NCBI GenBank assembly: GCA_965243735.1
Contig: CBDEVZ010000008.1
Coordinates: 3,867,180-3,931,179, forward strand
Source of the DNA: an uncultured Candidatus Binatia bacterium
Lineage (GTDB): Bacteria; Desulfobacterota; Binatia; Bin18
Direction of reading: 5' to 3'
DNA length: 64,000 nucleotides
This document shows positions 6,002 to 22,740 of the stretch, in pieces. Position numbers and translations under genes: made by a program. Below the pieces are notes generated by a model. It saw only the letters and a list, made by a program, of their open reading frames with translations. It did not search any database and was not told the origin of the DNA. Position 1 is the stretch's first letter. Each line of letters starts with the position of its first letter.

Positions 6002-6087
6002 ACACCTCCCGTACACCATCCCTCACGAAGGCGCAATTCACGACCACGTCACGGCTTCAGTTCTGCCCAGTCGGAGCAGAGCGCATT

Positions 6088-6128
6088 GTCAGATTACGCT
6101 TCGCTCATCCGACCTGCCGGGCTGCGCC
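6088..6128. repeat. REP-like palindromic unit (GTAGG...CGGAT.ACGCTTCGC..ATCCG)
   Basis: gattacgcttcgctcatccgacctgc is an imperfect hairpin closely related to the units at 6811-6907 and 18791-18866. Confidence 0.5.
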
Positions 6129-7972: not shown

Positions 7973-8064
7973 ACAAGACCCCCTTCGATCCTTAGGCTGT
8001 TCCGACCATACGCACTGCCGCTGGCATAATGCAAGCCGCCGTTCGATTTTTCTCTCGCCCCTCT

Positions 8065-8093
8065 TGTTTTCGCTTTTTTTTCGCCTATAGAAT
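8065..8093 (+). promoter_or_regulatory. Putative sigma70-like promoter (TTGTTT-15-TATAGAAT), near-leaderless
   Basis: AT-rich island in a GC-rich background, 7 nt upstream of ATG 8101. Confidence 0.3.
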
Positions 8094-8100
8094 ATTCAGT

Positions 8101-8505
8101 ATGAAGACACAGTCCAAGCCCAGGCGGCGTGCGGCCGCAGTCCAGCCCCGGCCGGTCTTGTCCGACCCCCGGGCGCTGAAGCGGGCGTATGTCGAGCACA
8201 CCCGTCGCCTCGGCCCGGACTTCGATGCCATCGACGGCTGGCTGATGGATCATCGGCCGGAGCTGTGGCAACAGATTCACCGCCAGGATGACGAGCTGTT
8301 TCGACTTCGCAGCCTGGCCACGGGCGAGCGCGAGTATACGGCCAGCCTTGAGAACTTTATCGGCCTGTATCAGGAAGCCGAGCGCCTGTACTACGAAGCC
8401 AGGCCCGATGAGTTGAGCCTGCCGCTGCTGGGCGAAGGCGAAAGCGTGGCCGTGTACTTCACCCTGGCCAACGGTTCCGTGCATAAGGTCAGCGGCATCG
8501 GCTAG
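8101..8505 (+). CDS. Hypothetical protein
   Basis: 134-aa ORF from MKTQSKPRRR. No recognisable domain. Coding plausibility rests on codon bias only. Confidence 0.4.
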   Translation: MKTQSKPRRRAAAVQPRPVLSDPRALKRAYVEHTRRLGPDFDAIDGWLMDHRPELWQQIHRQDDELFRLRSLATGEREYTASLENFIGLYQEAERLYYEARPDELSLPLLGEGESVAVYFTLANGSVHKVSGIG

Positions 8506-9428
8506 GCCGTATCCGTCAGCCCCCGATTGAAACCCGCCCGCGAATAGCCCACTCGTTCCTCTCCCATGCGCTCGATCAGGGCGGCCATCAGGCGCCGGGT
8601 GGTGTCCGGCCCGAACCAGCCCGGATAGCCGTGCTGGGCCAGCCGCTCGGGCACACGGCGACGGCGCGAGCGGGCGCCCTTGGCCCCGTCGCCGTGGAAA
8701 AAATCGTCAACAATGACCCGCCGGCACGCGTCGGCAATCAGCCCGGCAAAGCGCTCGGGGTTGTGGGGCAGGGCCGGAGAAACGCTGATCTGGGTAAAAA
8801 TCCCCCGCGCCGTCGCAGCCCGGGCAACGGCCAGACGGCGTTCAACCGTGGCGCAGCCGGGGGTCAGCTTGCGTCGCACACTATCGTCGTCGGTCTCAAT
8901 GGTCAGGTTCAGCACCGCAGTTGGAATGGCCGCAATCAGCTCGAAGTAGCGCTCGACCAGGGGCGAGCGCGTTTGCAGCACCAGGAGAGCGGGCGGAAAG
9001 CGGCCCAAGACCTCAAGACATCGGCCGGACAGCCCATATCGGGGTTCGAGCCTGGGCTGGAAGGGGTCGGTTGAACCCGAACAGTAGATACGTGGCCGGA
9101 TGTCCCGTCGGGCCAGTCTGTCCAGCTCTCGCTCCAGGACTTCGGCAATGTTGATCTTGGCCGTGACCCACTCGCCCCAGGCCCGCCCGTCGGCATGAAA
9201 GCGCTGGACCTGGCTTTCGGCAACGTAACAGTAGAAACACGAGCTGCCGTACGAGCAGCCCCAGTAGGGGGTCAGGCTGTGGCTGAAGCCGGACAGGAAC
9301 CCGCCGGTTTTGGTCAGGGCCGATTTGACGCGCCTGTGGCGGATGGTGAGCACGCCCCCCTTCTGCCCCGTCCGCCCGTCGGCTGTCAACACCGCACCCG
9401 GCTTGACGCTGTCGGCCCCGACCTGCAT
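8502..9428 (-). CDS. Radical SAM protein, SplB-like DNA repair photolyase family (COG1533)
   Basis: TPYWGCSYGSSCFYCY matches the NPYxGCxHGCxYCY cluster of spore-photoproduct-lyase-like radical SAM enzymes. 308 aa. Confidence 0.65.
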   Translation of the reverse strand: MQVGADSVKPGAVLTADGRTGQKGGVLTIRHRRVKSALTKTGGFLSGFSHSLTPYWGCSYGSSCFYCYVAESQVQRFHADGRAWGEWVTAKINIAEVLERELDRLARRDIRPRIYCSGSTDPFQPRLEPRYGLSGRCLEVLGRFPPALLVLQTRSPLVERYFELIAAIPTAVLNLTIETDDDSVRRKLTPGCATVERRLAVARAATARGIFTQISVSPALPHNPERFAGLIADACRRVIVDDFFHGDGAKGARSRRRRVPERLAQHGYPGWFGPDTTRRLMAALIERMGEERVGYSRAGFNRGLTDTA

Positions 9429-9494: not shown

Positions 9495-10802
9495 ATGGAG
9501 TCACGCCCGCAACCGTCCCATACCGTCCCGCCCGCCGTCCCGCCCGGCCGCTCCTGGCCACGCCGCTACAACCTGGTCGGGCTGTGTTTTCTGAGCACCT
9601 TCATCTGCTACATCGACCGGGTCAATATCTCGGTGGCCATCATCCCCATGGCCGAAGAGTTCGGCTGGGATCAAACCACCCGCGGCATTGTGCTGTCGTC
9701 CTTTTTCTACGGCTATCTGGCCACCCAGGTGTTTGGCGGCTGGCTGGCCGACCGCTTTGGCGGCAAAATCGTGCTGGGCATCGGCGTGGTGTGGTGGTCG
9801 GTGTTCACCCTGATCACCCCGCCGGCTGCGGCCCTGTCTTTCGCCGTCCTGTTTCTGGCTCGGGTCGGCATGGGTCTGGGCGAGGGGGTGGCCTTTCCGG
9901 CCATCTACAACCTGTACGCGCGCTGGATCCCCAAACAGGAACGCGCCCGGGCAGCGGCCCTCAACGCCAGCGGCGTTCCCCTGGGGACGGTCGGCGCCCT
10001 GCTGCTGACGCCGACCATCGTGATCGCGCTGGGCTGGCCGTGGGTGTTCTACCTGTTCGGCATTCTGGGCTTCGTGTGGTACGGCCTGTGGCACTTCCTG
10101 ACCACCGATACCCCCGACAGCCATCCCGGTGTGCCTCCCTCGGAGTTGGAGTTTATTCGCAACAACGTCCCGCCGGTGCCCAAAAACGAGACGATTCCGT
10201 GGGCGCAGCTGTTATCCAAGGTGCCGGTCTGGGCCATCATCATCAATCATTTTTGTTCAAACTGGGGCTTTTATGTGCTCCTGACCTGGCTGCCGACGTA
10301 TTTCACCCAGGCCCTGGGCGTCGACCTGTCCCAGGTTGGGCTGTACACCATTCTGCCCTGGCTGGCCATGTTTCTGATGGCCAATGTCGCCGGCTGGGTG
10401 GCCGACAAGCTGATCGAATCCGGCCTGTCGGTGACGTTCGTACGCAAGCTGATGCAGACCATCGGCTTTCTGGGACCGACCATCTTTCTGAGCCTGATCG
10501 GCAGTGTCAGCTCCGCCCCGCAGGCGATTGCCTACATATGTTGCGCCCTGGGGCTGAACGCCTTTGCCCTGGCCGGCTTTGGCGTCAACCACCTGGATAT
10601 CGGCCCGCGCTACGCTGGCATTCTGCTCGGTTTTTCCAACACCGCGGGCACCATACCGGGCATCGTGGGCGTGACCCTGACCGGCTATCTGCTGGATGTC
10701 ACCGGCTCGTGGGGGCTGGTGTTCTCGATTGCGGCCGGCATCTACCTGTTCGGCCTGCTGGTGTGGCTGCTGTTTGCGACCGGCGAGCGGGTCTTCGAGT
10801 AG
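9495..10802 (+). CDS. MFS transporter (anion:cation symporter / ACS-like)
   Basis: 435 aa, 12 TM segments, YIDRVNISVA and GGWLADRFGGK motifs. Confidence 0.8.
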   Translation: MESRPQPSHTVPPAVPPGRSWPRRYNLVGLCFLSTFICYIDRVNISVAIIPMAEEFGWDQTTRGIVLSSFFYGYLATQVFGGWLADRFGGKIVLGIGVVWWSVFTLITPPAAALSFAVLFLARVGMGLGEGVAFPAIYNLYARWIPKQERARAAALNASGVPLGTVGALLLTPTIVIALGWPWVFYLFGILGFVWYGLWHFLTTDTPDSHPGVPPSELEFIRNNVPPVPKNETIPWAQLLSKVPVWAIIINHFCSNWGFYVLLTWLPTYFTQALGVDLSQVGLYTILPWLAMFLMANVAGWVADKLIESGLSVTFVRKLMQTIGFLGPTIFLSLIGSVSSAPQAIAYICCALGLNAFALAGFGVNHLDIGPRYAGILLGFSNTAGTIPGIVGVTLTGYLLDVTGSWGLVFSIAAGIYLFGLLVWLLFATGERVFE

Positions 10803-10819
10803 GGGCGACGCCGAATGTC

Positions 10820-13819
10820 TCACCCCGCCTGCTCGTAGGCAAGCTCGAACACGATATCGGTCAGGTGGTGCCGGAAGTCGGCGTCGTCCATGAACTTCTT
10901 GAACAGTTTGGTGTCGTCGTTCATCACCGAGACCATCACCTGCCGCAGCGCCTTGTCGTGCTCGATGCGGGCGTTCTCTTTGTCCGAGTTCTGCCGGGCG
11001 TTTTGGAACGCGGTATTCTCGGCCACGCGAGCGGGGATCGTCTGGGTGATGAGCTGCCGCACGCGGTCGGCGTCGTCCCAGTCGATGTCGCCGAACTGCT
11101 CGTTGAAGACCCGCAGGATGTTCGACAGCCGGTCCAGCTCGGGTTCTGGCCGATGACCGTCGCCGGGGGGCGGCACCGGCTCGACCTCGGCGTCCGCGTC
11201 AGGCAGCGCGATCTGCTGCATGGCCCGCTTCTCGACCCGGTAGCTGTCCATGTCGATGGCGTCGAGGATGCCCTTGGACAGGTCCTCCTCCTGGGGCGAG
11301 GGCAGCTTGGAGATCAGGAAATTCAGGAAGATTGAGCGCGTCTCCCAGGCGGCGTTGGTGTAGGGCAGGACCGACGACAGGAAGGCATAGGTCCGCACAA
11401 AGCCCTTGGCCTTGCCCTTGAAGTTGACCTGTCCGTCTTCGTCCAGGTCGTTCCGGTAGGTGTCCACGCAGGCGTCGAGAATGGGGTCGAGCTGGTCGCG
11501 CTCGGCCCCGCCCAGATAGCGCGACACAAAGTCGTCGATCTGCTCCGCAGCATAGACCTGGGCGCCGTCGAGGTCGGCCTGCAAGTCATGCAGCTTATTG
11601 GGGTCGGTCTCATCGGCCAGAATCGTCGCCCGATAGAAGTCGGCAAAGGCAGCGCGGATGGTGTCGGCGTCGTTCAGAAAATCCAGCACGAAGACATCGT
11701 GCTTCTTGGGATGCGCCCGGTTGAGGCGCGACAGGGTCTGCACCGCCTTGACGCCCGACAGGGTCTTGTCCACGTACATGGTGTGCAGCAGGGGTTCGTC
11801 ATAGCCGGTCTGGAACTTGTCGGCACACACCAGGAAGCGGTAGGGGTCGGCCTGGATCTTCTCGGCAATCTTGGCGGACGGAAAGCCGTTCAGCGCCGCC
11901 TCGCTGACCTTGGCTCCGTTGAACTCGGGCTCGCCGGAAAACGCCACGATGGCCCGGTAGCGGCTCTTGCGCTCTGTCAGATACTCGCGGATGGCGTGAA
12001 AGTACTGGATCGCGCGCGCAATGCCGTTGGTGACGACCATCGCCCGCGCCTGGCCGCCAATCCTGTTCTGGGCCAGCACCTGCTCATGGAAGTGATCGAC
12101 CATGATCTCGGCCTTGAGACGGATAGCGTGGTCGTGGCCCTCGACAAAGCGCCGCAGCTTTTTCTGGGCCTTTTTCGTATCGAACTGCGGGTCGTCGGCC
12201 ACCGTCTTGGCCAGCCTGTAGTAGCTGGCCACCGGCGTGTAGTGGCCGAGCACGTCCAGGATAAAGCCCTCCTGGATGGCCTGCTTCATGGTGTAGCTGT
12301 GAAAGGCGTGGTGTTTGACCGTGCCGTCGGCCTGGGGCTCGGGCTCGCCGAAGAGTTCCAGGGTCTTGTTTTTGGGCGTGGCGGTGAAGGCAAAGTAGCT
12401 GGCGTTGGGGAGCAGCTTGCGCGACTCCATCAAACGGTTGATCTGGTCCTCGTAGGTCTCCGCCTCGCCCTCCTCACCGGCCTCGGACAGCGCCTGGGCC
12501 ATGGCTGCACTGGTGCGGCCGCCCTGGCTGGAGTGGGCCTCGTCAATGATGATGGCAAAGCGCCGCCCACGCTGCTCGTTACCGATCTCGTCGAGGATGA
12601 AGGGGAACTTCTGCACGGTCGAGATGATCATCTTCTTGCCGGCCTCAATGAACCGACGCAGGTCGCCCGAGCGCTCGGCGGGGCCCAGCGTCGCCCCGAC
12701 CTGGGCGTACTGCCGGATGGTGTCGCGGATCTGCTTGTCCAGAATGCGGCGGTCGGTGACCACAACGATCGAATCGAAGACCGGGGCGTCGTCCTGTGTC
12801 AGCCCGATCAGCTGGTGGGCCAGCCAGGCGATGGAGTTGCTCTTGCCGCTGCCCGCCGAGTGCTGGATCAGGTAGCGTCGGCCCGCCCCGCGTGTCCCGG
12901 CGTCGGCCAGCAGCCGACGCACCACGTCGAGCTGGTGGTAGCGCGGCCAGACCTGGGTCTTCTTTTTCCGGCCCGTCTTGTCGTCCTTTGACTCCACCAC
13001 CTGGGCGTAGTTCTCCAGGATGTTGGTCAGGCTTACGCGGCTCAGCACTGCGCGCCACAGGTAGTCGGCCTTGAGCCCGCTGGGATTGGGCGGGTTGCCC
13101 GCGCCGTCGTTCCAACCCCGGTTGAAGGGCAGGAACCACGAGGACTTGCCCTGGAGATGGGTGCAGAAGCGCACCTCACTCTCGTCCAGCGCGAAGTGGG
13201 CCACGCAGCGGCCAAACGCAAACAGCTGCTCGCGCGGGTTGCGGTCCCGCATGTACTGCTGGACCGCGTCGTCCACCGTCTGCTTGGTCAGGCTGTTCTT
13301 GAGTTCAAAGGTAAAGACCGGCAGGCCGTTGATGAACAGCCCGATGTCCAGCGCCCGCTGGGTTTCGTCGCGGCTGTAGCGCAGCTGACGGGTGACGCTG
13401 AAGCGGTTCTGCTCGAAGCGTTCCTGAGCCTTGTCGTTCCCGGCCGAAGGCGTGCCGTAGAACAAGTCCAGGTCGTGCGGCCCGTGCTTGATGCCGTGGC
13501 GCAGCACGTCGATGGTGCCGCGTTTGGCAATCTCGCCCTGGAGCCGGGCCAGGAACTTGCGCCGCGTCGGGCCGTCCTCGGACAGTCCCAGCGAGTCCGC
13601 GGCCTTGGGCTGGGTCGCGCGCAGAAAGGCGCGGAGCTGGACCACATCGACGCAGTACTCGCGGTCGTAGTCGTGGGGGTTGCCGCCACTCCAGCCCACC
13701 CCGCCGTAGCCGGCAGGTGGTTCGGCTGCGGTGCCGGCTGCGGGCGGCTCGCAGGGATGGCCGGCCAGTGCGGTGCAGATCAGGCGTTCGAGGCCGCGTT
13801 CGCTGGTGTCGGTGGTCAT
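10820..13819 (-). CDS. hsdR: Type I restriction enzyme R subunit HsdR
   Basis: 999 aa; SF2 helicase motifs (HSAGSGKS Walker A, DEAH box IIIDEAHSSQ), N-terminal nuclease region, HsdR C-terminal domain. Confidence 0.9.
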   Translation of the reverse strand: MTTDTSERGLERLICTALAGHPCEPPAAGTAAEPPAGYGGVGWSGGNPHDYDREYCVDVVQLRAFLRATQPKAADSLGLSEDGPTRRKFLARLQGEIAKRGTIDVLRHGIKHGPHDLDLFYGTPSAGNDKAQERFEQNRFSVTRQLRYSRDETQRALDIGLFINGLPVFTFELKNSLTKQTVDDAVQQYMRDRNPREQLFAFGRCVAHFALDESEVRFCTHLQGKSSWFLPFNRGWNDGAGNPPNPSGLKADYLWRAVLSRVSLTNILENYAQVVESKDDKTGRKKKTQVWPRYHQLDVVRRLLADAGTRGAGRRYLIQHSAGSGKSNSIAWLAHQLIGLTQDDAPVFDSIVVVTDRRILDKQIRDTIRQYAQVGATLGPAERSGDLRRFIEAGKKMIISTVQKFPFILDEIGNEQRGRRFAIIIDEAHSSQGGRTSAAMAQALSEAGEEGEAETYEDQINRLMESRKLLPNASYFAFTATPKNKTLELFGEPEPQADGTVKHHAFHSYTMKQAIQEGFILDVLGHYTPVASYYRLAKTVADDPQFDTKKAQKKLRRFVEGHDHAIRLKAEIMVDHFHEQVLAQNRIGGQARAMVVTNGIARAIQYFHAIREYLTERKSRYRAIVAFSGEPEFNGAKVSEAALNGFPSAKIAEKIQADPYRFLVCADKFQTGYDEPLLHTMYVDKTLSGVKAVQTLSRLNRAHPKKHDVFVLDFLNDADTIRAAFADFYRATILADETDPNKLHDLQADLDGAQVYAAEQIDDFVSRYLGGAERDQLDPILDACVDTYRNDLDEDGQVNFKGKAKGFVRTYAFLSSVLPYTNAAWETRSIFLNFLISKLPSPQEEDLSKGILDAIDMDSYRVEKRAMQQIALPDADAEVEPVPPPGDGHRPEPELDRLSNILRVFNEQFGDIDWDDADRVRQLITQTIPARVAENTAFQNARQNSDKENARIEHDKALRQVMVSVMNDDTKLFKKFMDDADFRHHLTDIVFELAYEQAG

Positions 13820-14895
13820 GAGCCAGCGTGCAAAGCGCCTGAATCGATCCAGTCCTTCTCCGACAGGACATCAAGCGCAAGTTTAATCTGGCGCCGGGAA
13901 AACTTCTTCTTTCCCTCATTCCAGGCATAGGTCTGCCGAACGACATCACTTATAGTTTTGCCCTGCTCCTTACTGACGACCCAGTGAACCGTGGACAACA
14001 GTTCCAGGCCGAACGACGACTCAAAGCCTTCGACCAAGTCGGTCACCTTGTTGAAACGCTCGCGCGTTTTCGGGTGACTCTCGAGAAAGACGTTCGCGTC
14101 CTCGATTGCGCCGGGCACAAGTTCAAGTTGCTTACCGGGAGTATCGCCGCCATCGGCGTAGCCAGAGATGAAGTGTCCCTCAACCTTGTGCAGCACATGG
14201 CGCAAATTTTCTGCGTAGGGACCATAAGGCGCTTTTTGATACTTGAGTCGCAAGCGCTCGCCGGATTCCTGCATAAAATACAGAAGCTTGTGCACTTCCA
14301 ACAACGTCACAAACGGGTCCAGCAAGCCACGAAGATAGCAATCGATAAGCCCAACCAGCACAGCCCGTCCCGCTGTCATCTTGGGCACGTCACTGGAATG
14401 GTTGATCCGCTTGTCTAGCGGCCTGCCCCCTGGCTCGAACAACACGATCTTCAAATCATTAAACCCTCGCAGCATCGACTCGATACGTGGACGTACTTCA
14501 GACCAAGCTAGCCCCCCGAGACCACTCCCAAGCGGCGGGAGGGCAATCGACCGGATATTGAGAGCCCGGATTTCCTCCGCTAGGGCGGTAAGACCAGCAT
14601 CAATATCCTCCATTCGACTCTTGCCTCGCCAGTGGCGCTTAGTCGGAAAATTTATGATGTACCGCGGATACATCTGGCCGGTCTCGAAGACAAACATACG
14701 ACCCGGCTGTACCTCATTTCGCTTGCAGGCAGCAGCATAAGATTTGAAGTTCTCGGGGAAGGCTTTCTTGAACTGAAGCGCGATGCCACGGCCCATGACA
14801 CCGACACAGTTGACGGTATTGACCAACGCTTCGGCATCTTCAGCGATGATGTCGCCCGTCTTGTATTCGATCATGACGGCCCTCCTTTCGGTCAA
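13816..14895 (-). CDS. darG: DarG antitoxin (macrodomain ADP-ribosylglycohydrolase)
   Basis: N-terminal macrodomain (VNTVNCVGVMGRGIALQFKKAFPENF) plus the C-terminal DarT-binding region. 359 aa. Stop overlaps hsdR ATG (ATGA). Confidence 0.8.
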   Translation of the reverse strand: MTERRAVMIEYKTGDIIAEDAEALVNTVNCVGVMGRGIALQFKKAFPENFKSYAAACKRNEVQPGRMFVFETGQMYPRYIINFPTKRHWRGKSRMEDIDAGLTALAEEIRALNIRSIALPPLGSGLGGLAWSEVRPRIESMLRGFNDLKIVLFEPGGRPLDKRINHSSDVPKMTAGRAVLVGLIDCYLRGLLDPFVTLLEVHKLLYFMQESGERLRLKYQKAPYGPYAENLRHVLHKVEGHFISGYADGGDTPGKQLELVPGAIEDANVFLESHPKTRERFNKVTDLVEGFESSFGLELLSTVHWVVSKEQGKTISDVVRQTYAWNEGKKKFSRRQIKLALDVLSEKDWIDSGALHAGS

Positions 14896-15551
14896 TAATA
14901 CCAGCTGCGCTTGATTTCGACAGGTGGTTTATGCGTGGCGGTTTCAAGGGCTGCGCTGGCGCGGCCGTAGGCTGGATGTGAATACACGCCGATGCGCGAA
15001 ACCAGCTTCCAGGGGAAACGATGTTCGACCAGGAATTCTGCCTGTTTGCCCTCCTTTACCGATGAAGAGAGCCCCCGGCCGGACCAGCGATCACTCCGTA
15101 CGGCGTCCCAGTCAATCTCGCCCAGTCGGGACAAGTCGGAGCGATCCTTAAAGTAGCGGGCCCCAGCGTTCGACAACGTGAAGGCCCACCGTTGTTCGTG
15201 TTCCTCCGCCCAAGCAATGGTCTGGAATAAGTCCGCCTCCAGATGAACAATGAGTTCCTGCCCACCGCGATAGGCTAATTCAGGATGATTCGCCATATGG
15301 AGCAGGTAGAGCATGACGGACCGCGGGCAGAAGTAGAACGGCACGCACTGACCCACGTAGAGACCTGAATGACTGGTGAGCGTGAGTTCGGTCAGCCGCC
15401 GCTGCTTGATATTGCTCATACCGATTGCGGTGCCAGATGGTAAGCGTTGAACAACCTCTGCATCGCACCAGAGGAAGCCGTCCGCAATGACCGAGGGCAA
15501 CCGGTCGACGTGGACGATATGGTAAATCTTTGGCTCGGCGGGCATTGGCAT
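14892..15551 (-). CDS. darT: DarT toxin (DUF4433 ssDNA thymidine ADP-ribosyltransferase)
   Basis: KIYHIVHVDRLPSVIADG start and conserved ...QAEFLVE... DarT motif. ATG at 15551 (TTG at 15557 is also possible). Overlaps darG by 4 nt. Confidence 0.8.
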   Translation of the reverse strand: MPMPAEPKIYHIVHVDRLPSVIADGFLWCDAEVVQRLPSGTAIGMSNIKQRRLTELTLTSHSGLYVGQCVPFYFCPRSVMLYLLHMANHPELAYRGGQELIVHLEADLFQTIAWAEEHEQRWAFTLSNAGARYFKDRSDLSRLGEIDWDAVRSDRWSGRGLSSSVKEGKQAEFLVEHRFPWKLVSRIGVYSHPAYGRASAALETATHKPPVEIKRSWYY

Positions 15552-15599
15552 GGTCAATGCTCAACATCCGACGGTTCTTGCCCGTTGTCGGCCTCGGGC

Positions 15600-15629
15600 T
15601 CAGCGGCGTTCGGAGGTGTCGGTGGTCAT
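15600..15629 (-). pseudogene. Duplicated 5' fragment of hsdR (MTTDTSERR-stop)
   Basis: atgaccaccgacacctccgaacgccgctga is near-identical to the first 8 codons of hsdR (13796-13819, MTTDTSERG). Confidence 0.5.
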
Positions 15630-15649
15630 TGTGGGTCTGCTTGGTCTGT

Positions 15650-15743
15650 GAACAGGTTTATGACCCGAAGGCCATCGTAGTCCCGCTCCTCGCTGAACCC
15701 CTCGGAATAGACTACGTCGCAGCCCAGGGTACGTGCTGCTCAC
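15650..15743 (-). pseudogene. vapC remnant with internal deletion (~310 bp missing)
   Basis: Aligns to the 3' end of the intact vapC at 21307-21741 (…gcagcccaggg…), then jumps directly to the GTG start overlapping the vapB stop. The reading frame is destroyed. Confidence 0.55.
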
Positions 15744-16087
15744 CCGCGCTTGAGGTCTTCGTCTTCGGTGGCGGCCGCTGCCCGAGCCTCGGCCCTGGCT
15801 CTGGCCCGGTCGTACAGTTCCTCGCGCGTGAGGTTATCGGATATCCGCAGGCCTACGGCGCGAGCATCGAAATCCTCGAATACCTCGCGCAACATCCCCC
15901 GACAGCGTTCGGCTTCCGTCTCCACGTTCGTCTCGTTGGACGCCGTGCCGCCGGCGCGGTCCGCAACAAGACTCTTCAGGTAGTTCCGCACCAGATCCGA
16001 CACCGAGGTGTCCAACTCCGCCGCCCGAATACGGGCGAGGAGATAGGTTTCTTCGTCAACGGATACAGCGATGTTTTTTATGGCCAT
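15740..16087 (-). CDS. vapB: VapB-like ribbon-helix-helix antitoxin (paralogue 1)
   Basis: MAIKNIAVSVDEETYLLARIRAAELDTSVSDLVRNYLKSL. About 85% identical to the antitoxin at 21738-22079, whose partner is an intact PIN toxin. Confidence 0.6.
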   Translation of the reverse strand: MAIKNIAVSVDEETYLLARIRAAELDTSVSDLVRNYLKSLVADRAGGTASNETNVETEAERCRGMLREVFEDFDARAVGLRISDNLTREELYDRARARAEARAAAATEDEDLKRG

Positions 16088-16176
16088 AGCCTCACAATTT
16101 CTGAGAGACACAGCATAGGTTCCCATTGACCGACGGGCAACACCTCCAACGTCGTACGGGGGCAGCCAGATTCGGT

Positions 16177-16198
16177 AGGGGCGACCGGCCGGTCGCCC
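16177..16198. terminator. Perfect 22-bp palindrome GGGGCGACCGGCCGGTCGCCCC immediately 3' of the hsdS stop
   Basis: Strong GC hairpin abutting the hsdS stop (16199-16201). No U-tract, so it may be an attenuator or processing signal rather than an intrinsic terminator. Confidence 0.35.
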
Positions 16199-17605
16199 CT
16201 ACGCGACGTCAGTGTCGAGAGCGTCGTCCAGGGCGTCGTCGGCAGCCAGAGGATCGACCTCGGGCAGCGCGGCCGCCGCCTCGCGCACGTCGAGCTTGCC
16301 GGTAACGACATCAGCGATCAGGCGGGTGCGGTATTCGTGGAGGCGTGTGACTAGCCCGCGAGCACCGTCCATCGCCGCTGCAACGTTGCGCGTTGATCTC
16401 CTGAGGAAATCAACAATCATTCTCTGCTCGTCTTCAGGCGGGATGGCAACGGCAAGGACTTGCCAGCGTTCTGTGGGAAGGCGGCGAGTACCATGACCAG
16501 CCTCATCTATCAACGGCACGAAAGCGTCTTGCGCCGAATCCAATGCGCGCGCCAGAAATTCTGCCTCGATTCCCAAGACTGGCATCAGGGCCTTCATGTC
16601 TTGATTGATTGTCACGGGGCTCGTGATCCAGGCAATGGGAACCTTCCGAGCCAAGATCATCCCGCGGACGACCATCAGAACCGCTGGCGGATCGATCAGG
16701 CGTAGCGATGTTTCGTGAACAGCAGCCTCTGTGACCTTCATACCTGAGTCACAGATAGTCTCTCGCTTCATGTCTTTCGGCGTGACCCAGGGGATTGATC
16801 CATCCCAAAATCGCCGGTTTTCCATACTCGGCGTCATGCCGCCAACAACCATCCCGCATTGGCGCAGCTTCTTTACCTCCCAATGCGCCGGCACCTCGCC
16901 CAGCCACTCGACGCCGGAGGGCTTGTAGGCTGGGTAGGGCTGGCCGGTGCGCACGTTGATCTGGCCGGTGACGGCTTGGTGGATGATGGCCTGCTTCTGC
17001 TCCTCCAGCAGCGCAATCAGCTTCTGTTTGGCGCGGATGTAGCGCTGGATGCGCCAGTCGGCGTGGTCGAGGAAGCGGACGATGGCGGTTTGTTCGGACT
17101 CGGGCGGCCACCCCAGATAAATACTACCGACTATGTCGGTGTTCAGATTGAGTTGTGTTCCGAGCTTTCCCAATCTTGCGAACGGTGCTCTACACGAAAA
17201 CACACGGTATAAGAACTCGACATTGCCACGAAACTGAGGGAAGTAAACAAATCCATCATGAATGCAACATTGGATATTCGTGATGATCGGCTTTCCCACG
17301 GAACCAGCAATGCTGAGGAACAGCGCTCCTGGTTGTAATCGCACACTCAAAGATTGCCCTAGCCGAGAAAGGCGTTGTGTCGCCTTCTCAAGATAGTGAT
17401 TGCTCGCCGTTACATCGGCAATACGTACCCACGCATATTCGCCACTATCATCAAAATATCTTGTGTCACCAATTGGCCTTGGAGAGGCACCCCGCTTGAC
17501 TAAAGATAAGCTCTTCAGCCGCCGCACCTCCCAATGCGCCGGCACCTTCCCCAGCCACGGCACACCGGAATCTTTGTAAGCAGGATAAGGTTTGAGGCTC
17601 TCCAT
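16199..17605 (-). CDS. hsdS: Type I restriction-modification specificity subunit HsdS
   Basis: 468 aa with two target-recognition domains separated by conserved repeats (VPAHWEVRRLKSL ... VPAHWEVKKLRQ). Confidence 0.85.
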   Translation of the reverse strand: MESLKPYPAYKDSGVPWLGKVPAHWEVRRLKSLSLVKRGASPRPIGDTRYFDDSGEYAWVRIADVTASNHYLEKATQRLSRLGQSLSVRLQPGALFLSIAGSVGKPIITNIQCCIHDGFVYFPQFRGNVEFLYRVFSCRAPFARLGKLGTQLNLNTDIVGSIYLGWPPESEQTAIVRFLDHADWRIQRYIRAKQKLIALLEEQKQAIIHQAVTGQINVRTGQPYPAYKPSGVEWLGEVPAHWEVKKLRQCGMVVGGMTPSMENRRFWDGSIPWVTPKDMKRETICDSGMKVTEAAVHETSLRLIDPPAVLMVVRGMILARKVPIAWITSPVTINQDMKALMPVLGIEAEFLARALDSAQDAFVPLIDEAGHGTRRLPTERWQVLAVAIPPEDEQRMIVDFLRRSTRNVAAAMDGARGLVTRLHEYRTRLIADVVTGKLDVREAAAALPEVDPLAADDALDDALDTDVA

Positions 17606-17607
17606 CA

Positions 17608-17733
17608 GACTGCTTGGATGGGACCGGGATAGCGGACCACTTTGGTGTCGGTGGTCAGCAGGGTGATATTCTCAACCTGCGCTTGGGCGATGAGAATGCG
17701 GTCGAAGGGGTCATTGTGAATCGGCGGGAGCAG
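17608..17733 (-). pseudogene. PIN-domain (VapC, COG3744-type) C-terminal remnant
   Basis: Alternative frame encodes LLPPIHNDPFDRILIAQAQVENITLLTTDTKVVRYPGPIQAV, matching the LHRDPFDRLLIAQAqvEglpLvTaD C-terminus of VapC. No PIN N-terminus is present. Its TGA overlaps the hsdS ATG (TGATG). Confidence 0.55.
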
Positions 17734-18656
17734 GCCGACAGCACTCCCCCGAACATCTTCTCTATCTCGGGACCGCCCATGCTATCGAAGTCGTCGGGGA
17801 CCTGGATGTGTCCGGCCATGAAACCCAGGCGGGACGATGGTGTTCCATCGGGAAGTGCAAAGCCGAACTCACGCCGCAGACGGTCATACGCCTCCCGCGC
17901 CTCGGAACCGCGCCGGGCGGCCGCCTCGTGAAGCTGCTTCAAGTCCGCTCCGCCGTACAGGAGATCGACCGTATCGGCAATGAACTGCTCGATATGGGGA
18001 TCGCTGGCGTCCTGCTGGACAACCCAGCGCCAAAACCGCGCCATGCGTGTATCGTCAGGCTGGCTATAATCTTCCGGTTGTAGACCCGCGACCACCCAGG
18101 GCTTCCCCAAACGGAGGTCGGGATTGACCGAATCCTGGTACGACCACATGCGCAAGCCTGCCATGAGGGCCGCGCAAATGAACGCCCCATTGGACGTAGC
18201 TCGATCACTCCTGGCCGCCTCTCCGTTGTGTCCACGACAGCGGTCCATCTCGCGCAAGTATGACTCGACTTCGTGCTTGAGGGCGTAACTCGAACGTTTC
18301 GGCGGAGCCGGTCCATTGAAGCGACGCGCCCAGCCACACCCCTTCGGGCGATAGCTCAGCGACACCCGGCCCTCCACAAAATACTCCAACGTGTTGCGAA
18401 TACCCCGCTCATCCTGCCCGCCCGCCCGTAACGCATCCCGCGCTGCGTCCAAATCAGCGGGAATACACTCTATCTCCCAACGCTCCAAGTGCGTGCTCTC
18501 GGCAGAAAAAATACGGCGACGACGACGCACTTGTCCCAAGCCATGCGCATTGAGCAGAGGATAGGCTGCCAGAACCCGCTCGCGTTCCGCATCAAAAAAT
18601 CCTGGGTCCGAAAGCAACCGAGCGGCTCTCAACCACAACTGTTGGCTCTTCGTCAT
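17655..18656 (-). CDS. Hypothetical protein embedded between hsdM and hsdS (orfX)
   Basis: 333-aa ORF with no recognisable domain, and own promoter and RBS (AGGGA). The last ~40 codons overlap the PIN remnant in another frame and are probably read-through. Confidence 0.5.
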   Translation of the reverse strand: MTKSQQLWLRAARLLSDPGFFDAERERVLAAYPLLNAHGLGQVRRRRRIFSAESTHLERWEIECIPADLDAARDALRAGGQDERGIRNTLEYFVEGRVSLSYRPKGCGWARRFNGPAPPKRSSYALKHEVESYLREMDRCRGHNGEAARSDRATSNGAFICAALMAGLRMWSYQDSVNPDLRLGKPWVVAGLQPEDYSQPDDTRMARFWRWVVQQDASDPHIEQFIADTVDLLYGGADLKQLHEAAARRGSEAREAYDRLRREFGFALPDGTPSSRLGFMAGHIQVPDDFDSMGGPEIEKMFGGVLSACSRRFTMTPSTAFSSPKRRLRISPC

Positions 18657-18698
18657 TAAGAATCCCTGGTACTTGGATTAAACCCCTTACGATTCAAT

Positions 18699-18727
18699 CC
18701 AATATGAACTTTTGCTCATCTTGTCAA
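18699..18727 (-). promoter_or_regulatory. Putative sigma70 promoter for orfX (TTGACA-17-TATTGG)
   Basis: Minus-strand ttgacaagatgagcaaaagttcatattgg in an AT-rich patch about 45-70 nt upstream of the orfX ATG. Confidence 0.4.
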
Positions 18728-18790
18728 AAGTTCGCTATCCTCGCTCAGTCCTGCCGTCAGGCTAGAGCAATTCACCATGATGTGTAGCCG

Positions 18791-18866
18791 TGTAGGTCGG
18801 GTTAGCCGCAGGCGTAACCCGACGACATCCCGCACGTGTCGGATTACGCTTCGCTAATCCGACCTA
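18791..18866. repeat. Pair of REP-like palindromic units (BIME-like)
   Basis: gtaggtcgggttagccgcaggcgtaacccgac ... gtgtcggattacgcttcgctaatccgacctac, between hsdM and orfX. Confidence 0.5.
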
Positions 18867-18900
18867 CTACAGCCTATCGGGAAACGCTTTAGTGAGACGG

Positions 18901-20869
18901 CTATGCTCGGATGATCTCGTCGAGCAACCCCTCGGTCTCCTGCTCCAGCGCCAGAATATCGGCCCGGATCTCATCCAGGCTGCGCAGGGGCTGCGGCGTG
19001 TAGAAGTAGCGGGTGAAGCTGATCTCGTAGCCAATCTTTGCGCTGTCGGGCTGGACCAGGCGTCGGCGGCGTAGGGCAGGACCTCGCGCCGCAGGAAGGC
19101 TTCGATGCCGCCGACCTCTTGCAATGGAATCTGCTCGGTGTCGCGCAGGTCAGTGTCGGGCTCGTACTCGACCACCGTCGGCCGGCCGTTGATGCTGGTC
19201 GCGAACAAGCCGTGCAACGGGTCGGCCTCGGTGCCCCGCTTGTGAATCTTCCTGATGACGGGCGGCGCGTCCTCGCTGCGTTCGCCGTTCTCCTTGAGCT
19301 TCTTGAGTTCGGCAGATTTGTAGGCGCGGTCGGGGTCGGCGCCCCGGATACGTAGCGGCCGTTCGACTGTGACCTTCCAGTAGCCGAAGGCGGCGTTGTC
19401 GAAAATTTTGCTCTGCTCGGTCTCCTCGAAGTCGAGAAAGGTGTCGCAGATGCGGGCGATGTCGTCCTCCGCCAACTCGCAGTTCTTCTTGCCCAGGTTC
19501 TTGCGCAGCGGTTGGTGCCAGTTGGTGGCGTCGATGAGCTGCACCTTGCCCCGGCGCTGGGTGGGCTTGCGGTTGCTCAGCACCCACACATAGGTGGCGA
19601 TGCCGGTGTTGTAGAACATATTGAGCGGCAGGGCGACGATGGCTTCCAGCCAGTCGTTTTCGATAATCCAGCGGCGGATGTTGCTCTCGCCCTGGCCGGC
19701 GTCGCCGGTGAACAGCGAGCTGCCGTTGTGGACCTCGGCGATGCGGCTGCCGAGCGGGGTGTGTTGCTTCATCTTGGACAGCTTGTTGACCAGGAACAGC
19801 AGCTGGCCGTCGCTGGAGCGGGTGACCAGGGAATACTCTGGGTCGCCGTCATGCTCGATCACAAAGCGCGGGTCGCGCATGTCGGTCTTGCCGCCCATGC
19901 GCTCCAGGTCGGTCTTCCAGCTCTTGCCGTAGGGCGGGTTGGACAGCATGAAGTCGAACTCGCGGGCCGGGAAAGCGTCGTTGGCCAGGGTCGAGTGCTC
20001 CGGGCCGCCAACGATGTTGTCGGCGGCTTCGCCCTCGCCCTTGAGTAGCAGGTCGGCCGTGCAGATGGCGTAGGTCTCGGCGTTGATCTCCTGACCGTAG
20101 AGGTGGGTGGACACGTCCTTGGCGTGCGCGGCGGCGAGCTGGCGTAGGGTGTCCTCGGCCACGGTCAGCATGCCGCCGGTGCCGCAGGCGCCGTCGTACA
20201 GCAGATAGGTGCCCGACTTGATCGCGTCGGCGATGGGCAGGAAGACGAGCTTGGCCATCAGCCTCACCGCGTCGCGTGGGGTCCAGTGTTCGCCGGCCTC
20301 CTCGTTGTTCTCCTCGTTGAAACGGCGCACCAGCTCTTCAAAGATCGAACCCATGCCGTGGTTATCGAGACCGGGGTGCTTGACCGAGCCGTCGGCGTTC
20401 CTGACCGGGGCCGGGCTCAGGTTGATGTCGGGCGAGGTCAGCTTCTCGATCAGCGTGCCCAGGGCGTCGGCTCTGGACAGCCGCGGAATCTGGTTGCGGA
20501 ACTCGAAGTTGTCGAGGATGTCCTGCACGTTGGGCGAGAAGCCGTCGAGATATGCCTCGAAGTCGGCCGTCAGCTGCTGACGGTTGGCGCGGGCCTTGAG
20601 GTCGCGCAGGGTGAACTTCGAGGTGTTGTAAAAGGCTTGGCCTGCGGCCTGGCGCAGGCCAAGCCTTGCTCAACGACGCTTGCGGCGTCGAGCGTGGCCT
20701 TCATGTCGAGGACAGCCCGCTTACTGTCTTCCAGCACCGCATCGAGCCGGCGCAGGACGGTCATGGGCAGGATCACGTCGCGGTACTTGCCGCGCACGTA
20801 CAGGTCGCGCAGCACGTCGTCGGCAATGCCCCAGATGTAGTTGGCAATCCAGTTCAGGTCGGTGCTCAT
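18901..20869 (-). pseudogene. hsdM: Type I RM N6-adenine DNA methyltransferase HsdM, disrupted by two single-base frameshifts
   Basis: Three collinear frames carry an HsdM N-domain (MSTDLNWIANYIWGIADDVLRDLYVRGKYRDVILPMTVLRRLDAVLE, 20570-20869), the catalytic core with NPPYG (track ORF 18867-20528), and the canonical C-terminus (...KIGYEISFTRYFYTPQPLRSLDEIRADILALEQETEGLLDEIIRA, to stop at 18901). The shifts lie near 20650-20680 (missing C in a ggccctg run) and near 19055-19060 (missing G in a tggg run). Confidence 0.75.
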
Positions 20870-21021
20870 CTTTGTGCTTCTCCCTGATCGGCGCTCGTGC
20901 CCATGCGCTCGTGCCAGATGACGATATTTTCCACGGTAATGCGATGTCCGGCGATGCGCGGCTTGCCGCCTGATATGCCAGGGGTAATCTCAATATGTTG
21001 ATGCAAAGTTTCCGTCGCCAT
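20866..21021 (-). CDS. DUF433-like small protein (51 aa), translationally coupled to hsdM
   Basis: MATETLHQHIEITPGISGGKPRIAGHRITVENIVIWHERMGTSADQGEAQR has the GGKPcIrGTRItV core of DUF433. AGAGGA RBS; its TGA overlaps the hsdM ATG. Below the 60-aa cut-off of the track. Confidence 0.5.
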   Translation of the reverse strand: MATETLHQHIEITPGISGGKPRIAGHRITVENIVIWHERMGTSADQGEAQR

Positions 21022-21138
21022 CTGAATTTCCTCTTTCTCTCATCTCTAACGTATGATGCACATTACCCGGCATCTCCTCTTCCCAGCCGTGCAGAAGCCG
21101 CTGGGCCGGAGAGAACCCACCCCGCCGCTCACGCGGCA

Positions 21139-21182
21139 CCCCTCCGAGGAGGGGATGGAGGTGGTTCCCCTCCTCGGAGGGG
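21139..21182. promoter_or_regulatory. Hairpin with 16-bp arms CCCCTCCGAGGAGGGG / CCCCTCCTCGGAGGGG in the leader of the DUF433-hsdM transcript
   Basis: Perfect inverted repeat with a 12-nt loop, between the hsdR-fragment repeat and the DUF433 start. Followed on the plus strand by gggtttcttttt. Confidence 0.35.
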
Positions 21183-21233
21183 TGGCCGAAGGCCGGGGTG
21201 GGTTTCTTTTTGCATCACACGTCTCTAGCTGTA

Positions 21234-21310
21234 GGCGGCTCGCACGGGTGGCCGGCCAGCGCGGTGCAGATCAGGCGTTCGAGGCCGCGTTCGCTGGCAT
21301 CGCTGGTCAC
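21234..21310 (-). pseudogene. Duplicated 5' fragment of hsdR (~77 bp; GTG-TSDASERGLERLICTALAGHPCEPP...)
   Basis: About 90% identical to hsdR nt 13743-13819. Its GTG overlaps the vapC stop (GTGA), as the real hsdR ATG overlaps the darG stop. Confidence 0.6.
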
Positions 21311-21741
21311 GGGGTTTCCGATTCTTCCAGAAACGGGTTTATGACTCGGAGGCTGTCGTAGTCCTGCTCCGAGCTGAGATCTTCCGAGTAGACGGCATCG
21401 CAGCCCAGGGCGCGCGCCGCCGCGAGAATCGCCCCGTCCCAGTAAGACAGCCGGAAGCGTTGGCTGATAGCAACGCCGACGCGAAACACCTCAAAGGTGA
21501 CGTCCTGCACCGGAAAGCGACCGATGCTCTCGATAAATTCCAGCGCATGGTCTTGGGTGATCGCTCCTGGACGGTTGGAGCGCGTTGCCTGGTGATAGAA
21601 CTCTTGCAGCACCTGCACCGACAGCGCCAAGTCCCCTGTGTTCAGCAGGCTGAGAGCACGAAGACGCTTGTCAGCGTCCTCGGACAGAGCGCTCACCGCG
21701 TATAGCAGCACGTTCGTATCGACAAAGCGCACGGCGCTCAC
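21307..21741 (-). CDS. vapC: Type II toxin VapC (PIN domain)
   Basis: GTG start overlapping the vapB stop (GTGA). VSAVRFVDTNVLLYAVS... with PIN acidic residues. 144 aa. Confidence 0.8.
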   Translation of the reverse strand: MSAVRFVDTNVLLYAVSALSEDADKRLRALSLLNTGDLALSVQVLQEFYHQATRSNRPGAITQDHALEFIESIGRFPVQDVTFEVFRVGVAISQRFRLSYWDGAILAAARALGCDAVYSEDLSSEQDYDSLRVINPFLEESETP

Positions 21742-22079
21742 CCGCGCTTGAGGTCTTCGTCTTCGGCGGCAGCCGCTGCCTGAGCCTCGGCCCTGGCTCT
21801 GGCCCGGTCGTACAGTTCCTCGCGGGACAGGTTGTCGGCCATGCGTAATCCGCCGCCGTTGGCCGTGATCTTCTTGATGACCTGGCACAACATCCTCCGG
21901 CGGCGTTCGGCTTCCGTCTCCACGTCCGGCTCGTTGGATGCCGTGCCGCCAGCGCGGTCCGCAACGAGGCTCTTCAGGTAGTTCCGCACCAGAGCCGACA
22001 CCGAAGTGTCCAACTCCGCCGCCCGAATACGAGCGAGCCGATGGGTTTCTTCGTCAACGGATACGGTGATGTTTTTCAT
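21738..22079 (-). CDS. vapB: VapB-like ribbon-helix-helix antitoxin (paralogue 2)
   Basis: MKNITVSVDEETHRLARIRAAELDTSVSALVRNYLKSL. GAGG RBS. Palindrome TGTGTAACACA at 22100-22110 is a likely operator. Confidence 0.65.
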   Translation of the reverse strand: MKNITVSVDEETHRLARIRAAELDTSVSALVRNYLKSLVADRAGGTASNEPDVETEAERRRRMLCQVIKKITANGGGLRMADNLSREELYDRARARAEAQAAAAAEDEDLKRG

Positions 22080-22257
22080 GAGCACAGCCTCACAATTTCT
22101 GTGTAACACAGCATAGGTTCTCATTGACCGCCGGGCAACACCTCAGGCGCTGCGTGGGGGTAGCCAGATCCGGTAGGAGCGATGCGATATCTCGTGTGGA
22201 GGGGTAGGACATTCCATCATCCTGAGGCATTGTTACTATGAGAACAGGGGTGCTGCC

Positions 22258-22740
22258 ATGACAGCAAGACAGATTCGCTTCCAGGACCTGCCGAGTCTCG
22301 TCGGCCAGGAGGTCGGCGTGTCGGACTGGTACCTCGTCACCCAGCAGGCCGTCGATGCCTATGCTGCGGCGACCAACGACCACCAGTGGTTTTGCGAAGA
22401 TGTGGAGCGCGCCGCAAAAGAATCACCCTTTGGCGGAACGGTGGCGCCGGGCTATTTCATCCTGGCCCTTGCCCCAGGACTGCTCAAAGAAATCTGGTAC
22501 CTTCGGGGGGCGCGGCTGGGCATGAACTACGGCATCAACCGCCTGCGCTTCCCGGCCCCGCTCCGCATCGGCAAACGGGTGCGCCTGCGGCTCAGCGTCT
22601 GCGGTGTCACACCCGTGGCGGATGGACAGGAAGTCAGCCTGCGCCTGTCGTTTGAAGTGGAGGGCGGCAAGAAGCCGGTGTGTGTTGCCGAGCCGGTGTA
22701 TCGCTATCTTGATCGTTATCTTGATCGCTATCTGGGCTGA
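22258..22740 (+). CDS. MaoC-family dehydratase (hot-dog fold)
   Basis: 160 aa; the hot-dog region ...GYFILALAPGLL... resembles R-specific enoyl-CoA hydratase-like proteins. Confidence 0.7.
   Translation: MTARQIRFQDLPSLVGQEVGVSDWYLVTQQAVDAYAAATNDHQWFCEDVERAAKESPFGGTVAPGYFILALAPGLLKEIWYLRGARLGMNYGINRLRFPAPLRIGKRVRLRLSVCGVTPVADGQEVSLRLSFEVEGGKKPVCVAEPVYRYLDRYLDRYLG

Follow-up and report, generated by a model that had tools for sequence, protein, structure and literature searches.

How does a restriction operon come to carry toxin-antitoxin (TA) modules between its genes, together with short copies of the beginning of its own restriction gene? The question is raised by an approximately 11-kb type I restriction-modification locus of an uncultured Candidatus Binatia bacterium, contained in a 64,000-nt stretch of contig CBDEVZ010000008.1 (GCA_965243735.1, positions 3,867,180 to 3,931,179). 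This whole stretch is here called the window, and positions are counted from its first letter. The locus lies entirely on the minus strand, between an MFS transporter gene at its downstream edge (9495-10802, plus strand) and a MaoC-like dehydratase gene on the other flank (22258-22740, plus strand). Its genes were checked with open reading frames (ORFs), Pfam, and PADLOC. In minus-strand order they read vapB2-vapC2-hsdR5'(82 nt)-hairpin-DUF433 fragment-hsdM(two frameshifts)-orfX-PIN remnant, followed by hsdS-vapB1-deleted vapC1-hsdR5'(~25 nt)-darT-darG-hsdR. A first-pass annotation, made from the sequence alone, had given the same order, PIN remnant included, and ORFs, Pfam, PADLOC, and tblastn bear it out in nearly every particular. 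Seven of these genes are intact (vapB2, vapC2, hsdS, vapB1, darT, darG, and hsdR), and four are degraded (vapC1, the PIN gene after orfX, DUF433, and hsdM). All ORFs of the 10.8-22.2-kb region are accounted for, and Pfam finds no recombinase gene among them. The G+C content is 55-58% in darTG, hsdS, and orfX versus 63-67% in the flanks. The locus is thus a stacked, partly decayed type I restriction island with TA passengers. We consider it likely that it is a composite, an hsdM/hsdS/hsdR scaffold with cargo slots built by successive inter-island recombinations at the start of hsdR.

Which parts of the island are repeated, and how closely do the copies agree? The vapB unit had been reported to occur twice, and self-comparison of the window, the check proposed for that claim, returns the repeats. 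The two vapB units (15738-16184 and 21736-22182) are 85.0% identical over 447 nt, a second pair (15603-15729 and 21284-21410) is 71.7% identical over 127 nt, and the genuine 5' end of hsdR (13737-13818) has an 82-nt counterpart at 21228-21309 with 90.2% identity. The distal copy consists of vapB2 (21738-22124, minus strand, probable start ATG at 22079) and an intact PIN toxin gene directly downstream of this small antitoxin gene, vapC2 (21307-21741, minus strand, 144 aa, PF01850 E 3e-12), the two genes overlapping by GTGA. In the proximal copy, vapB1 (15740-16126, minus strand, probable start ATG at 16087) is an orphan antitoxin-like gene. Its partner, vapC1, is reduced to a GTG start plus the last ~100 nt (15631-15743, minus strand). 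The deletion of ~310 nt described earlier for this proximal vapC is found as stated; the remnant is also out of frame, and a 47-aa ORF (15600-15743) runs across it. For the vapB antitoxin fold, only a weak DUF6364 match is obtained (E 0.003, below the cut-off, in vapB1), and cargo genes of related loci match DUF6364 or a FitA-like ribbon-helix-helix domain in Pfam. A promoter-like TTGCCC-17 nt-TATGCT, read directly from the sequence, follows hsdS at 16112-16140 (minus strand), and an identical site precedes vapB2 at 22110-22138; comparable sequences follow hsdS in other loci of the family. Because the two vapB copies are only 85% identical, they are too different to result from assembly collapse or expansion. 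A per-30-nt profile of their DNA gives 87-97% identity on either side of a ~50-nt patch at 53-67%, a pattern that appears to fit recombining alleles better than simple divergence after duplication. The evidence supports the view that the two vapB units are diverged alleles joined by inter-island recombination, rather than a recent duplication in place.

The pieces of hsdR offer a second record. The intact restriction gene (10820-13819, minus strand, 999 aa) encodes an N-terminal nuclease region and a superfamily 2 translocase on one uninterrupted ORF (HSDR_N, SWI2_SNF2, ResIII, and T1R_D3; PF04313, PF18766, PF04851, and PF22679), and its product is 97% identical to the closest database protein. 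Two copies of its 5' end lie upstream on the same strand. Both had been recognized earlier, with lengths of 77 and 30 bp that we correct to 82 nt and ~24-27 nt. The longer, scar 2 (21228-21309), forms a 28-codon ORF whose GTG overlaps the vapC2 stop (GTGA), as the sequence was said to read. This stop/start overlap is typical of loci with vapBC directly before hsdR. The shorter, scar 1 (15604-15630), reads ATGACCACCGACACC..CGAACGC and matches the hsdR start in many loci. The darG stop likewise overlaps the ATG of the live hsdR (ATGA), as had been noted. The first-pass annotation had three TA modules translationally chained into the restriction gene. That holds for DarTG only, which abuts the real hsdR; vapBC2 is coupled to the 28-codon hsdR relic, 7.4 kb upstream of the real gene. 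The simplest reading of the upstream vapBC2-hsdR' unit is that it represents the vestige of a second hsd unit that has lost the body of its hsdR, and tandem or partial second hsd units occur elsewhere, e.g., in L075.

Are such pieces peculiar to this island? We scanned one genome per species and obtained 420 related stretches, of which 80 were retained, 77-91% identical over the first 400 HsdR residues; the window and these 80 loci make up the 81 sources of the scar counts below. HsdR has thousands of close relatives, the best 120 of them 84-97% identical. Exact-protein look-ups for the window's HsdR, HsdS, and OrfX and for their closest database relatives gave no record. The relatives at 77-97% come from metagenome-assembled genomes (MAGs) labelled as Binatia, Latescibacterota, Vicinamibacterales and other Acidobacteriota, Gamma- and Alphaproteobacteria, Spirochaetia, Gemmatimonadota, Desulfobacterales, Rhodothermales, Planctomycetales, Acidimicrobiia, and others (about a dozen phyla). 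The DNA of hsdM is 78-90% identical across the retained loci. This hsd family is a very widely transferred type I system. The flanks of the window have no synteny match among the 80 related loci.

Comparison with these loci reveals gaps between the hsd genes that are filled in many ways. hsdS and hsdR are adjacent (42-84 nt) in 13/77 loci and otherwise separated by 0.2-8.8 kb (median, 1.8 kb), while hsdM and hsdS are adjacent in 8/61 loci, with 0.2-5.2 kb between them in the rest. Directly upstream of hsdR lies VapC in 14 loci, HsdS in 12, DarG in 10, and VapB without VapC in 6. Among 150 sampled cargo ORFs, Pfam matches include DUF433 (16), PIN (13), DUF6364 (VapB-like here; 9), and Y1_Tnp (6), besides DUF5615, DUF6978, Fic, Macro, DarT, HEPN/NTase-type, AbiEii-like ATPase, HicB, Mrr, GmrSD, and Schlafen; the hsd slots therefore collect TA and defense genes. 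Within one lineage, the hsdM-hsdS slot holds orfX and a PIN relic (the window), a BrnT/CopG-like pair (L006), or a Fic gene (L066), so the slots turn over independently. Stumps of the hsd genes recur as well. At the protein level, extra HsdR N termini stand upstream of an intact hsdR in 16/81 sources, namely the window and 15 other loci, each with a partial 5' copy upstream and the intact gene downstream; extra HsdM 5' ends are found in 6/81 and extra HsdS 3' ends in 2/81. At the DNA level, hsdR scars of 27 to >590 nt are present in at least 13 loci, with two stumps each in L009 and L053 and two long ones in L066.

The most telling of these traces is the join upstream of darT, which we call junction A. 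Between scar 1 and darT lies a ~50-nt relic (15554-15603, minus strand) that aligns with the hsdS 3' ends of L031, L041, and L074. In these three loci hsdS runs straight into darT, with the common ending ...TGACCATG(darT). Junction A is thus hsdR (nt 1 to ~25) fused to hsdS (last ~50 nt) and followed by darT, and such a fusion is the trace that a vapBC-hsdR island and a darTG-hsdR island would leave on crossing over out of register. The window's junction A is also found in L006 (a Binatia MAG) and L066; therefore, it is old, real, and independently assembled. A junction of the same kind in L053, where an hsdR stump (9075-9143) is followed by an hsdS tail (9151-9261), arose independently of the window's. 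L016 carries vapB-vapC(5' 255 nt)-darTG at 7605-8265, with DarTG only 63-69% identical to that of the window. This arrangement, too, is independent, so that darTG lies behind a vapB with a broken vapC in two separate lineages.

The closest relative, L006, further shows where the darTG block ends. Over 15800-13801 the two islands differ by ~3-4 mismatches per 100 nt (0-8 by 100-nt bin). From 13800 on they differ by ~10 per 100 nt, so that the window's hsdR is no closer to that of L006 than to that of any other locus. Identity drops from ~96% to ~90% within 20 nt of the hsdR start codon (13819), and on the upstream side the similarity collapses inside vapB1. The break at the hsdR start means that the 2-kb darTG block moved between islands whose hsdR genes are 10% apart, suggestive of one crossover at the very start of hsdR. 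Upstream of its hsdM, L006 also retains the last ~95 nt of vapC (90% identical to vapC2), followed by ATGACCAC and the hsdM leader. Since this vapC-hsdR' relic is present in L006 too, the vapBC-hsdR stump upstream of hsdM predates the split of both lineages.

Recombination at the hsdR 5' end, reshuffling the TA cargo, was first proposed from the window itself. Comparison with 80 hsd loci now supports it along four lines: the cargo slots, the recurrent hsdR 5' pieces, the hsdS-tail junction, and the identity break at the hsdR start. The reading as a shuffling hotspot stands, and what does not stand is a recent in-place duplication and a working chained operon, much of the island being in decay. 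How might such an island be assembled? Cargo slots, i.e., the gaps between hsd genes and the space upstream of hsdM, would collect TA and abortive-infection genes. Each event would combine one homologous crossover, in a conserved hsd gene of the same transferred family, with an illegitimate or misaligned join within the first ~25-82 nt of the resident hsdR. The genes of hsd operons overlap end to end, and the hsdR start would be one of the few harmless join sites because the incoming DNA brings a complete hsdR. After every event, the older cargo would be followed by a short 5' remnant of hsdR as a scar. In event A, an 'hsdS-vapBC-hsdR' island would have recombined with an 'hsdS-darTG-hsdR' island to give vapB1-vapC1-hsdR'(25 nt)/hsdS tail(50 nt)-darT-darG-hsdR. 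In event B, vapB2-vapC2-hsdR'(82 nt) would have been left upstream of hsdM as the stump of a second hsd unit. Later decay would account for the deletion of most of vapC1 and of the PIN gene after orfX, the truncation of DUF433, and the two hsdM frameshifts.

Several points weigh against this history or leave parts of it loose. We infer the order of events and the roles of donor and recipient. The vapBC2-hsdR' unit is of uncertain origin and may derive from a tandem second unit, a circular intermediate, or a deletion; no hsdS or hsdM lies upstream of it. Junction A offers only patchy matches (CTCGA / CGACAC) and no clear microhomology. vapB1 and vapB2 are 85% identical, compared to at most 80% for either with any sampled locus except L006, and some recent common ancestry or gene conversion of the two may have played a part. 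A consensus promoter scan found no promoter, the promoter-like sites having been read by eye and lying below its threshold. Finally, the hsdM frameshifts described below could be sequencing errors, though one of them lies outside any homopolymer.

Could the promoter-vapB-vapC-hsdR5' unit simply have been duplicated in place, by slippage or unequal sister-chromatid exchange, and have diverged without any contribution from other islands? The two units share one orientation within one island, and their vapB parts are each other's closest relatives apart from L006, as just noted. Their 15% divergence, however, equals that between islands of different phyla, and the patch of low identity inside vapB makes the pair a mosaic. 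Nor would such a duplication supply the foreign hsdS tail of junction A, the different histories of the darTG block and the hsdR next to it, or junctions common to L006 and L066 in different genomic contexts. We regard a duplication in place as unlikely. The last point also bears on a metagenome assembly chimera, formed through conserved hsd sequences, with the hsdM frameshifts as consensus errors. hsd genes that are 80-97% identical in co-occurring taxa are a known risk for chimeric joins, but a chimera would join inside common sequence and not make short stumps fused to unrelated DNA. Moreover, L006 and L066, assembled independently, both have junction A, the vapC-hsdR' relic upstream of hsdM recurs in L006, the repeats are only 85% identical, one hsdM deletion is not in a homopolymer, and one 59-kb database contig has both HsdR at 97% and OrfX at 98%. 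A chimeric origin is accordingly hard to credit.

Two further explanations accept the pieces as genuine and give them a different meaning. The hsdR 5' fragments might be kept as useful coupling ORFs or leaders, for translation or stability, rather than being neutral scars. Indeed, both pieces in the window keep a start that overlaps the upstream stop and stay open for 9 and 28 codons, and the 82-nt piece retains 90% identity with the live hsdR. Their lengths and end points nevertheless vary between loci, scar 2 runs into a stop and a strong hairpin with no coupled gene, and most cargo-bearing loci have no such fragment, which makes a retained function most improbable. The other explanation is a site-specific cassette system, integron- or REPtron-like, in which GTAG-tagged repetitive extragenic palindromes (REPs) serve as boundaries and are cut by a REP-associated tyrosine transposase (RAYT; a Y1 HUH transposase). 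A perfect 28-nt palindrome of this kind, GTAGGGGCGACCGGCCGGTCGCCCCTAC, starting with GTAG, ending with CTAC, and having a G+C-rich stem, overlaps the hsdS stop codon (16175-16202), and it is the one full copy in the 64-kb window. Homology between the vapB units ends at the REP center, and there the island itself ends as well, in a right half, TCGCTCCTAC (22173-22182), seen in the alignment and in the per-30-nt identity profile. At the opposite edge, just past the hsdR stop, lies a possible half REP, cgTCGCCCCTAC (10799-10810, minus strand), with one mismatch to GGTCGCCCCTAC; the argument for it is one of position, L013 and L017 having a full REP in that place. REPs stand at module boundaries in 14 related loci (L001, L002, L013, L017, L037, L043, L048-L050, L053, L054, L058, L063, and L068), with 40/40 copies inside islands and not one across 145 kb of flanking sequence (P 2e-12), and 9-11 loci have RAYT-like genes in the hsdM-hsdS slot. 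Against a cassette system, the scar breakpoints vary from 25 to >590 nt into hsdR, away from the REPs, 66/80 loci have cargo without a REP, no RAYT is present in the window, and half-REP motifs in the window are at chance level (10 versus 8.2 expected). What is more, at least 120 metagenome contigs (L084-L203), drawn from many environments, contain this 28-mer beside housekeeping genes, and only 3 of them have hsd genes. The REP as an island-specific cassette boundary worked by a RAYT was therefore dropped, and such a system seems very unlikely. Because the 28-mer is so widespread beside ordinary housekeeping genes, it is a generic REP, at most a passenger. We thus retain successive recombination between islands at the hsdR start as the preferred account.

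The REPs show some features of their own. REPs are normally lineage-specific, and conservation base for base over so wide a range is unusual for them. A REP lies inside hsdR itself (nt ~253, ~10240-10282) in L050, L053, L058, and L068, and the HsdR genes of these loci have an in-frame excess of 30-42 nt in the N-terminal region; hence the element appears to be tolerated in hsdR coding sequence. The RAYT-like Y1_Tnp genes (L001 6386-6913, L002, L037 5777-6310, L048, L050 6606-7142, L054, L058, L063, and L068 3767-4300) have the motifs NHVHGIV and WQRNYYEH and carry a REP copy within their own frame, and their 3' end plus REP is repeated upstream of hsdS and other cargo. In L001, L037, L049, L058, and L063, TTGCCC...TATAxT follows the REP. 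Between hsdM and orfX lies an inverted doublet of another REP type, also GTAG...CTAC (18792-18867, minus strand). One of its arms recurs at 6087-6115, 12.7 kb away and outside the island, so it is probably an element of the host genome.

What, then, could the island still do? Its DarTG module is intact. darT (14892-15551, minus strand) encodes a 219-aa toxin, a single-stranded-DNA ADP-ribosyltransferase (PF14487 E 4e-63; PADLOC DarT). Aligned to Thermus DarT (7OMV), it has a Glu in KQAEFLV at the place where the crystal sequence has Ala (KQAAFLV), a residue that we take to be catalytic and to have been mutated to Ala for that crystal. darG (13816-14874, minus strand) encodes a 352-aa antitoxin (Pfam Macro; PADLOC DarG E 1e-135) to which the PADLOC profile aligns from residue 1, over residues 1-340. 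Residues 1-152 match the macrodomains 5M3I and 5M31 in the PDB (E 1e-49 to 1e-51), and residues 166-335, the C-terminal half, match 7YK3_B. The DarT fold and a DarG with an N-terminal macrodomain and a C-terminal DarT-binding domain are both recognizable, and the pair is assigned to the thymidine-type, DarTG2-like family. The two genes had been described as overlapping by 4 nt; in fact, the darG ATG at 14874 comes 17 nt after the darT stop, with an AAGGAGG Shine-Dalgarno sequence in the spacer. vapB1, the relic ORF, darT, darG, and hsdR probably form one transcription unit from the promoter-like site after hsdS, and VapB1 could possibly remain as a residual regulator. By analogy with the enteropathogenic E. 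coli island compared below, which has DarTG2 in this slot, DarTG would be a working abortive-infection module acting through DNA ADP-ribosylation and its reversal, and VapBC2 would be a self-contained, autonomous TA pair.

The restriction-modification core is less well preserved. hsdS (16199-17605, minus strand) is intact, with two target-recognition halves (Methylase_S PF01420 in two stretches), a full-length PADLOC Specificity_I match (E 4e-84), and the internal repeat D4 in the self-comparison. hsdM (18901-20869, minus strand; N6_Mtase PF02384 and HsdM_N PF12161) is split between frames. The frameshift reported earlier is there, though it is not single: three-frame translation and alignment with six relatives reveal two separate 1-nt deletions, one near 20659 in a CCC run and one near 19055, not in a homopolymer, that loses the A of TA(T/C). 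hsdM is thus probably a pseudogene. HsdM is required in type I enzymes for both restriction and modification, and both activities have therefore probably been lost, if the frameshifts are real. As a separate observation, HsdM matches in two overlapping pieces in L030, L035, and L070, suggesting a frameshifted hsdM there too; this may be either recurrent decay in the hsd family or an error mode common to the assemblies.

The cargo around hsdM is also worn down. Upstream of it, a DUF433 5' fragment (20866-21021, minus strand, 51 aa; PF04255 E 9e-10, model positions 1-35 of 56) consists of the first ~46 codons fused to the hsdM leader, with an ATGA overlap with hsdM; full DUF433 genes stand downstream of hsdM, in the hsdM-hsdS slot, in L044, L053, and L064. 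Downstream of hsdM, orfX (17655-18656, minus strand) has no Pfam match and runs at its 3' end into a PIN toxin relic, the last 45 codons of such a gene (17608-17742, minus strand), recognized by tblastn with the L081 PIN protein (42/45 residues identical, 93%; E 2e-25). The OrfX family comprises 166 homologues, typically of 300-306 aa and without a Pfam domain; an AlphaFold2 model of OrfX has a mean confidence (pLDDT) of 67 and no PDB match. In L081-L083 (L081 8001-9286), orfX overlaps a 128-aa PIN gene by 4 nt, beside an hsdR; a role as a large and as yet undescribed partner or antitoxin of a PIN toxin is conceivable for OrfX.

Between scar 2 and the DUF433 fragment lies a 91-nt three-way hairpin (21114-21204; -88 kcal/mol, z -7.6), which on the plus strand reads as a stem followed by TTTCTTTTT. 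An Rfam scan of the island, the hairpin included, returned nothing, and an exact 24-nt search of the Joint Genome Institute (JGI) metagenomes for the scar-2/hairpin junction gave no match. Copies 89-92% identical occur in two Binatia loci (L006 539-636 and L010 3303-3355), in other positions and in the opposite orientation. Predicted terminators are at chance level.

Defense genes are often embedded in other defense operons, and such 'guilt by embedding' is used to find new systems, but how the embedding arises is rarely documented. Here the stumps, the hsdS tail, and the identity break are physical footprints of it, left in the locus and its 80 relatives; taken together, they indicate that conserved hsd genes anchored the recombination. 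The locus also displays what becomes of an island of this sort afterwards, with toxins deleted, antitoxins still present, and a decaying methylase. More tentatively, and with the balance of probability against it, the hsd family might be a cross-phylum 'defense scaffold' whose unusually conserved hsdM and hsdR serve as portable homology arms for cargo capture. Were this true, any cell with one copy could capture cargo from any other by one homologous plus one illegitimate crossover, and the order of the 5' stumps (of hsdR, hsdS, and hsdM) would preserve the succession in which cargo was acquired. Orphan antitoxins such as VapB1 and OrfX would be kept as protection against re-invading toxin modules, and there would be a general, directional route by which defense genes become embedded in other defense systems. 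The finding leaves the accepted roles of type I restriction-modification, DarTG, and VapBC unchanged.

How does the island compare with those already known? The closest parallel is the RRDM island of enteropathogenic Escherichia coli (EPEC), rptR-hsdM-hsdS-darT2-darG2-hsdR-M48, which is active against phages in experiments and whose authors named the hsdS-hsdR site a potential recombination hotspot (PMC12255303). Both islands have a thymidine-type DarTG between hsdS and hsdR, directly upstream of hsdR. Unlike RRDM, the window lacks both an RptR-like first gene and an M48 peptidase, carries a VapB/deleted-VapC pair and an hsdR stump between hsdS and darT, and has a second vapBC-hsdR' unit upstream of a frameshifted hsdM. 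Its hsd family is spread across environmental phyla, and the island is known from sequence alone. The same slot is used in the prr locus of E. coli, hsdM-hsdS-prrC-hsdR, where the EcoprrI system is joined by the PrrC anticodon nuclease (PMC3014915). There, too, the gene of a toxic effector occupies the space between hsdS and hsdR and adds a second layer of defense; PrrC, however, is a single protein, latent on the Hsd complex and released by the T4 Stp peptide, whereas the window's cargo, known only as genes, consists of self-contained TA pairs. A VapBC-type PIN module also adjoins the type I genes hsdM and hsdS at vapBC21 of Mycobacterium tuberculosis, but the hsd family and the slot are different, and no hsdR stumps or duplicated units are described there. 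Deletion of vapC21 in this species changes the transcript levels of hsdM and hsdS.1 (PMC7517352).

For the mechanism, the nearest model was proposed for the orphan immunity arrays of the Vibrio cholerae type VI secretion system (T6SS), as an anchor plus an illegitimate join (PMC5361080). As in these arrays, and in the displacement of C termini in Rhs and contact-dependent inhibition (CDI) systems, new modules would come in beside a conserved anchor gene through a pair of crossovers, one homologous and the other illegitimate. The older toxins disappear, and their protective partners stay behind along with gene stumps, as have VapB1, OrfX, and the DUF433 stump in the window. The arrays differ in that their anchor is a T6SS structural or effector gene and growth proceeds downstream, whereas in the present island hsd genes take the anchor role and the scars consist of 5' pieces that precede the live gene. 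The GTAG-tagged palindrome and the RAYT-like Y1_Tnp genes of related islands recall the GTAG REP/RAYT systems (PMC3733652), from which the window differs by one full copy in 64 kb and by an identical 28-mer across very many unrelated contigs. DarTG between hsdS and hsdR has thus already been described and tested, and the present locus is a well-documented example rather than a new system: it belongs to a known type of island, with heavier stacking than in the earlier cases and with part of it in decay.

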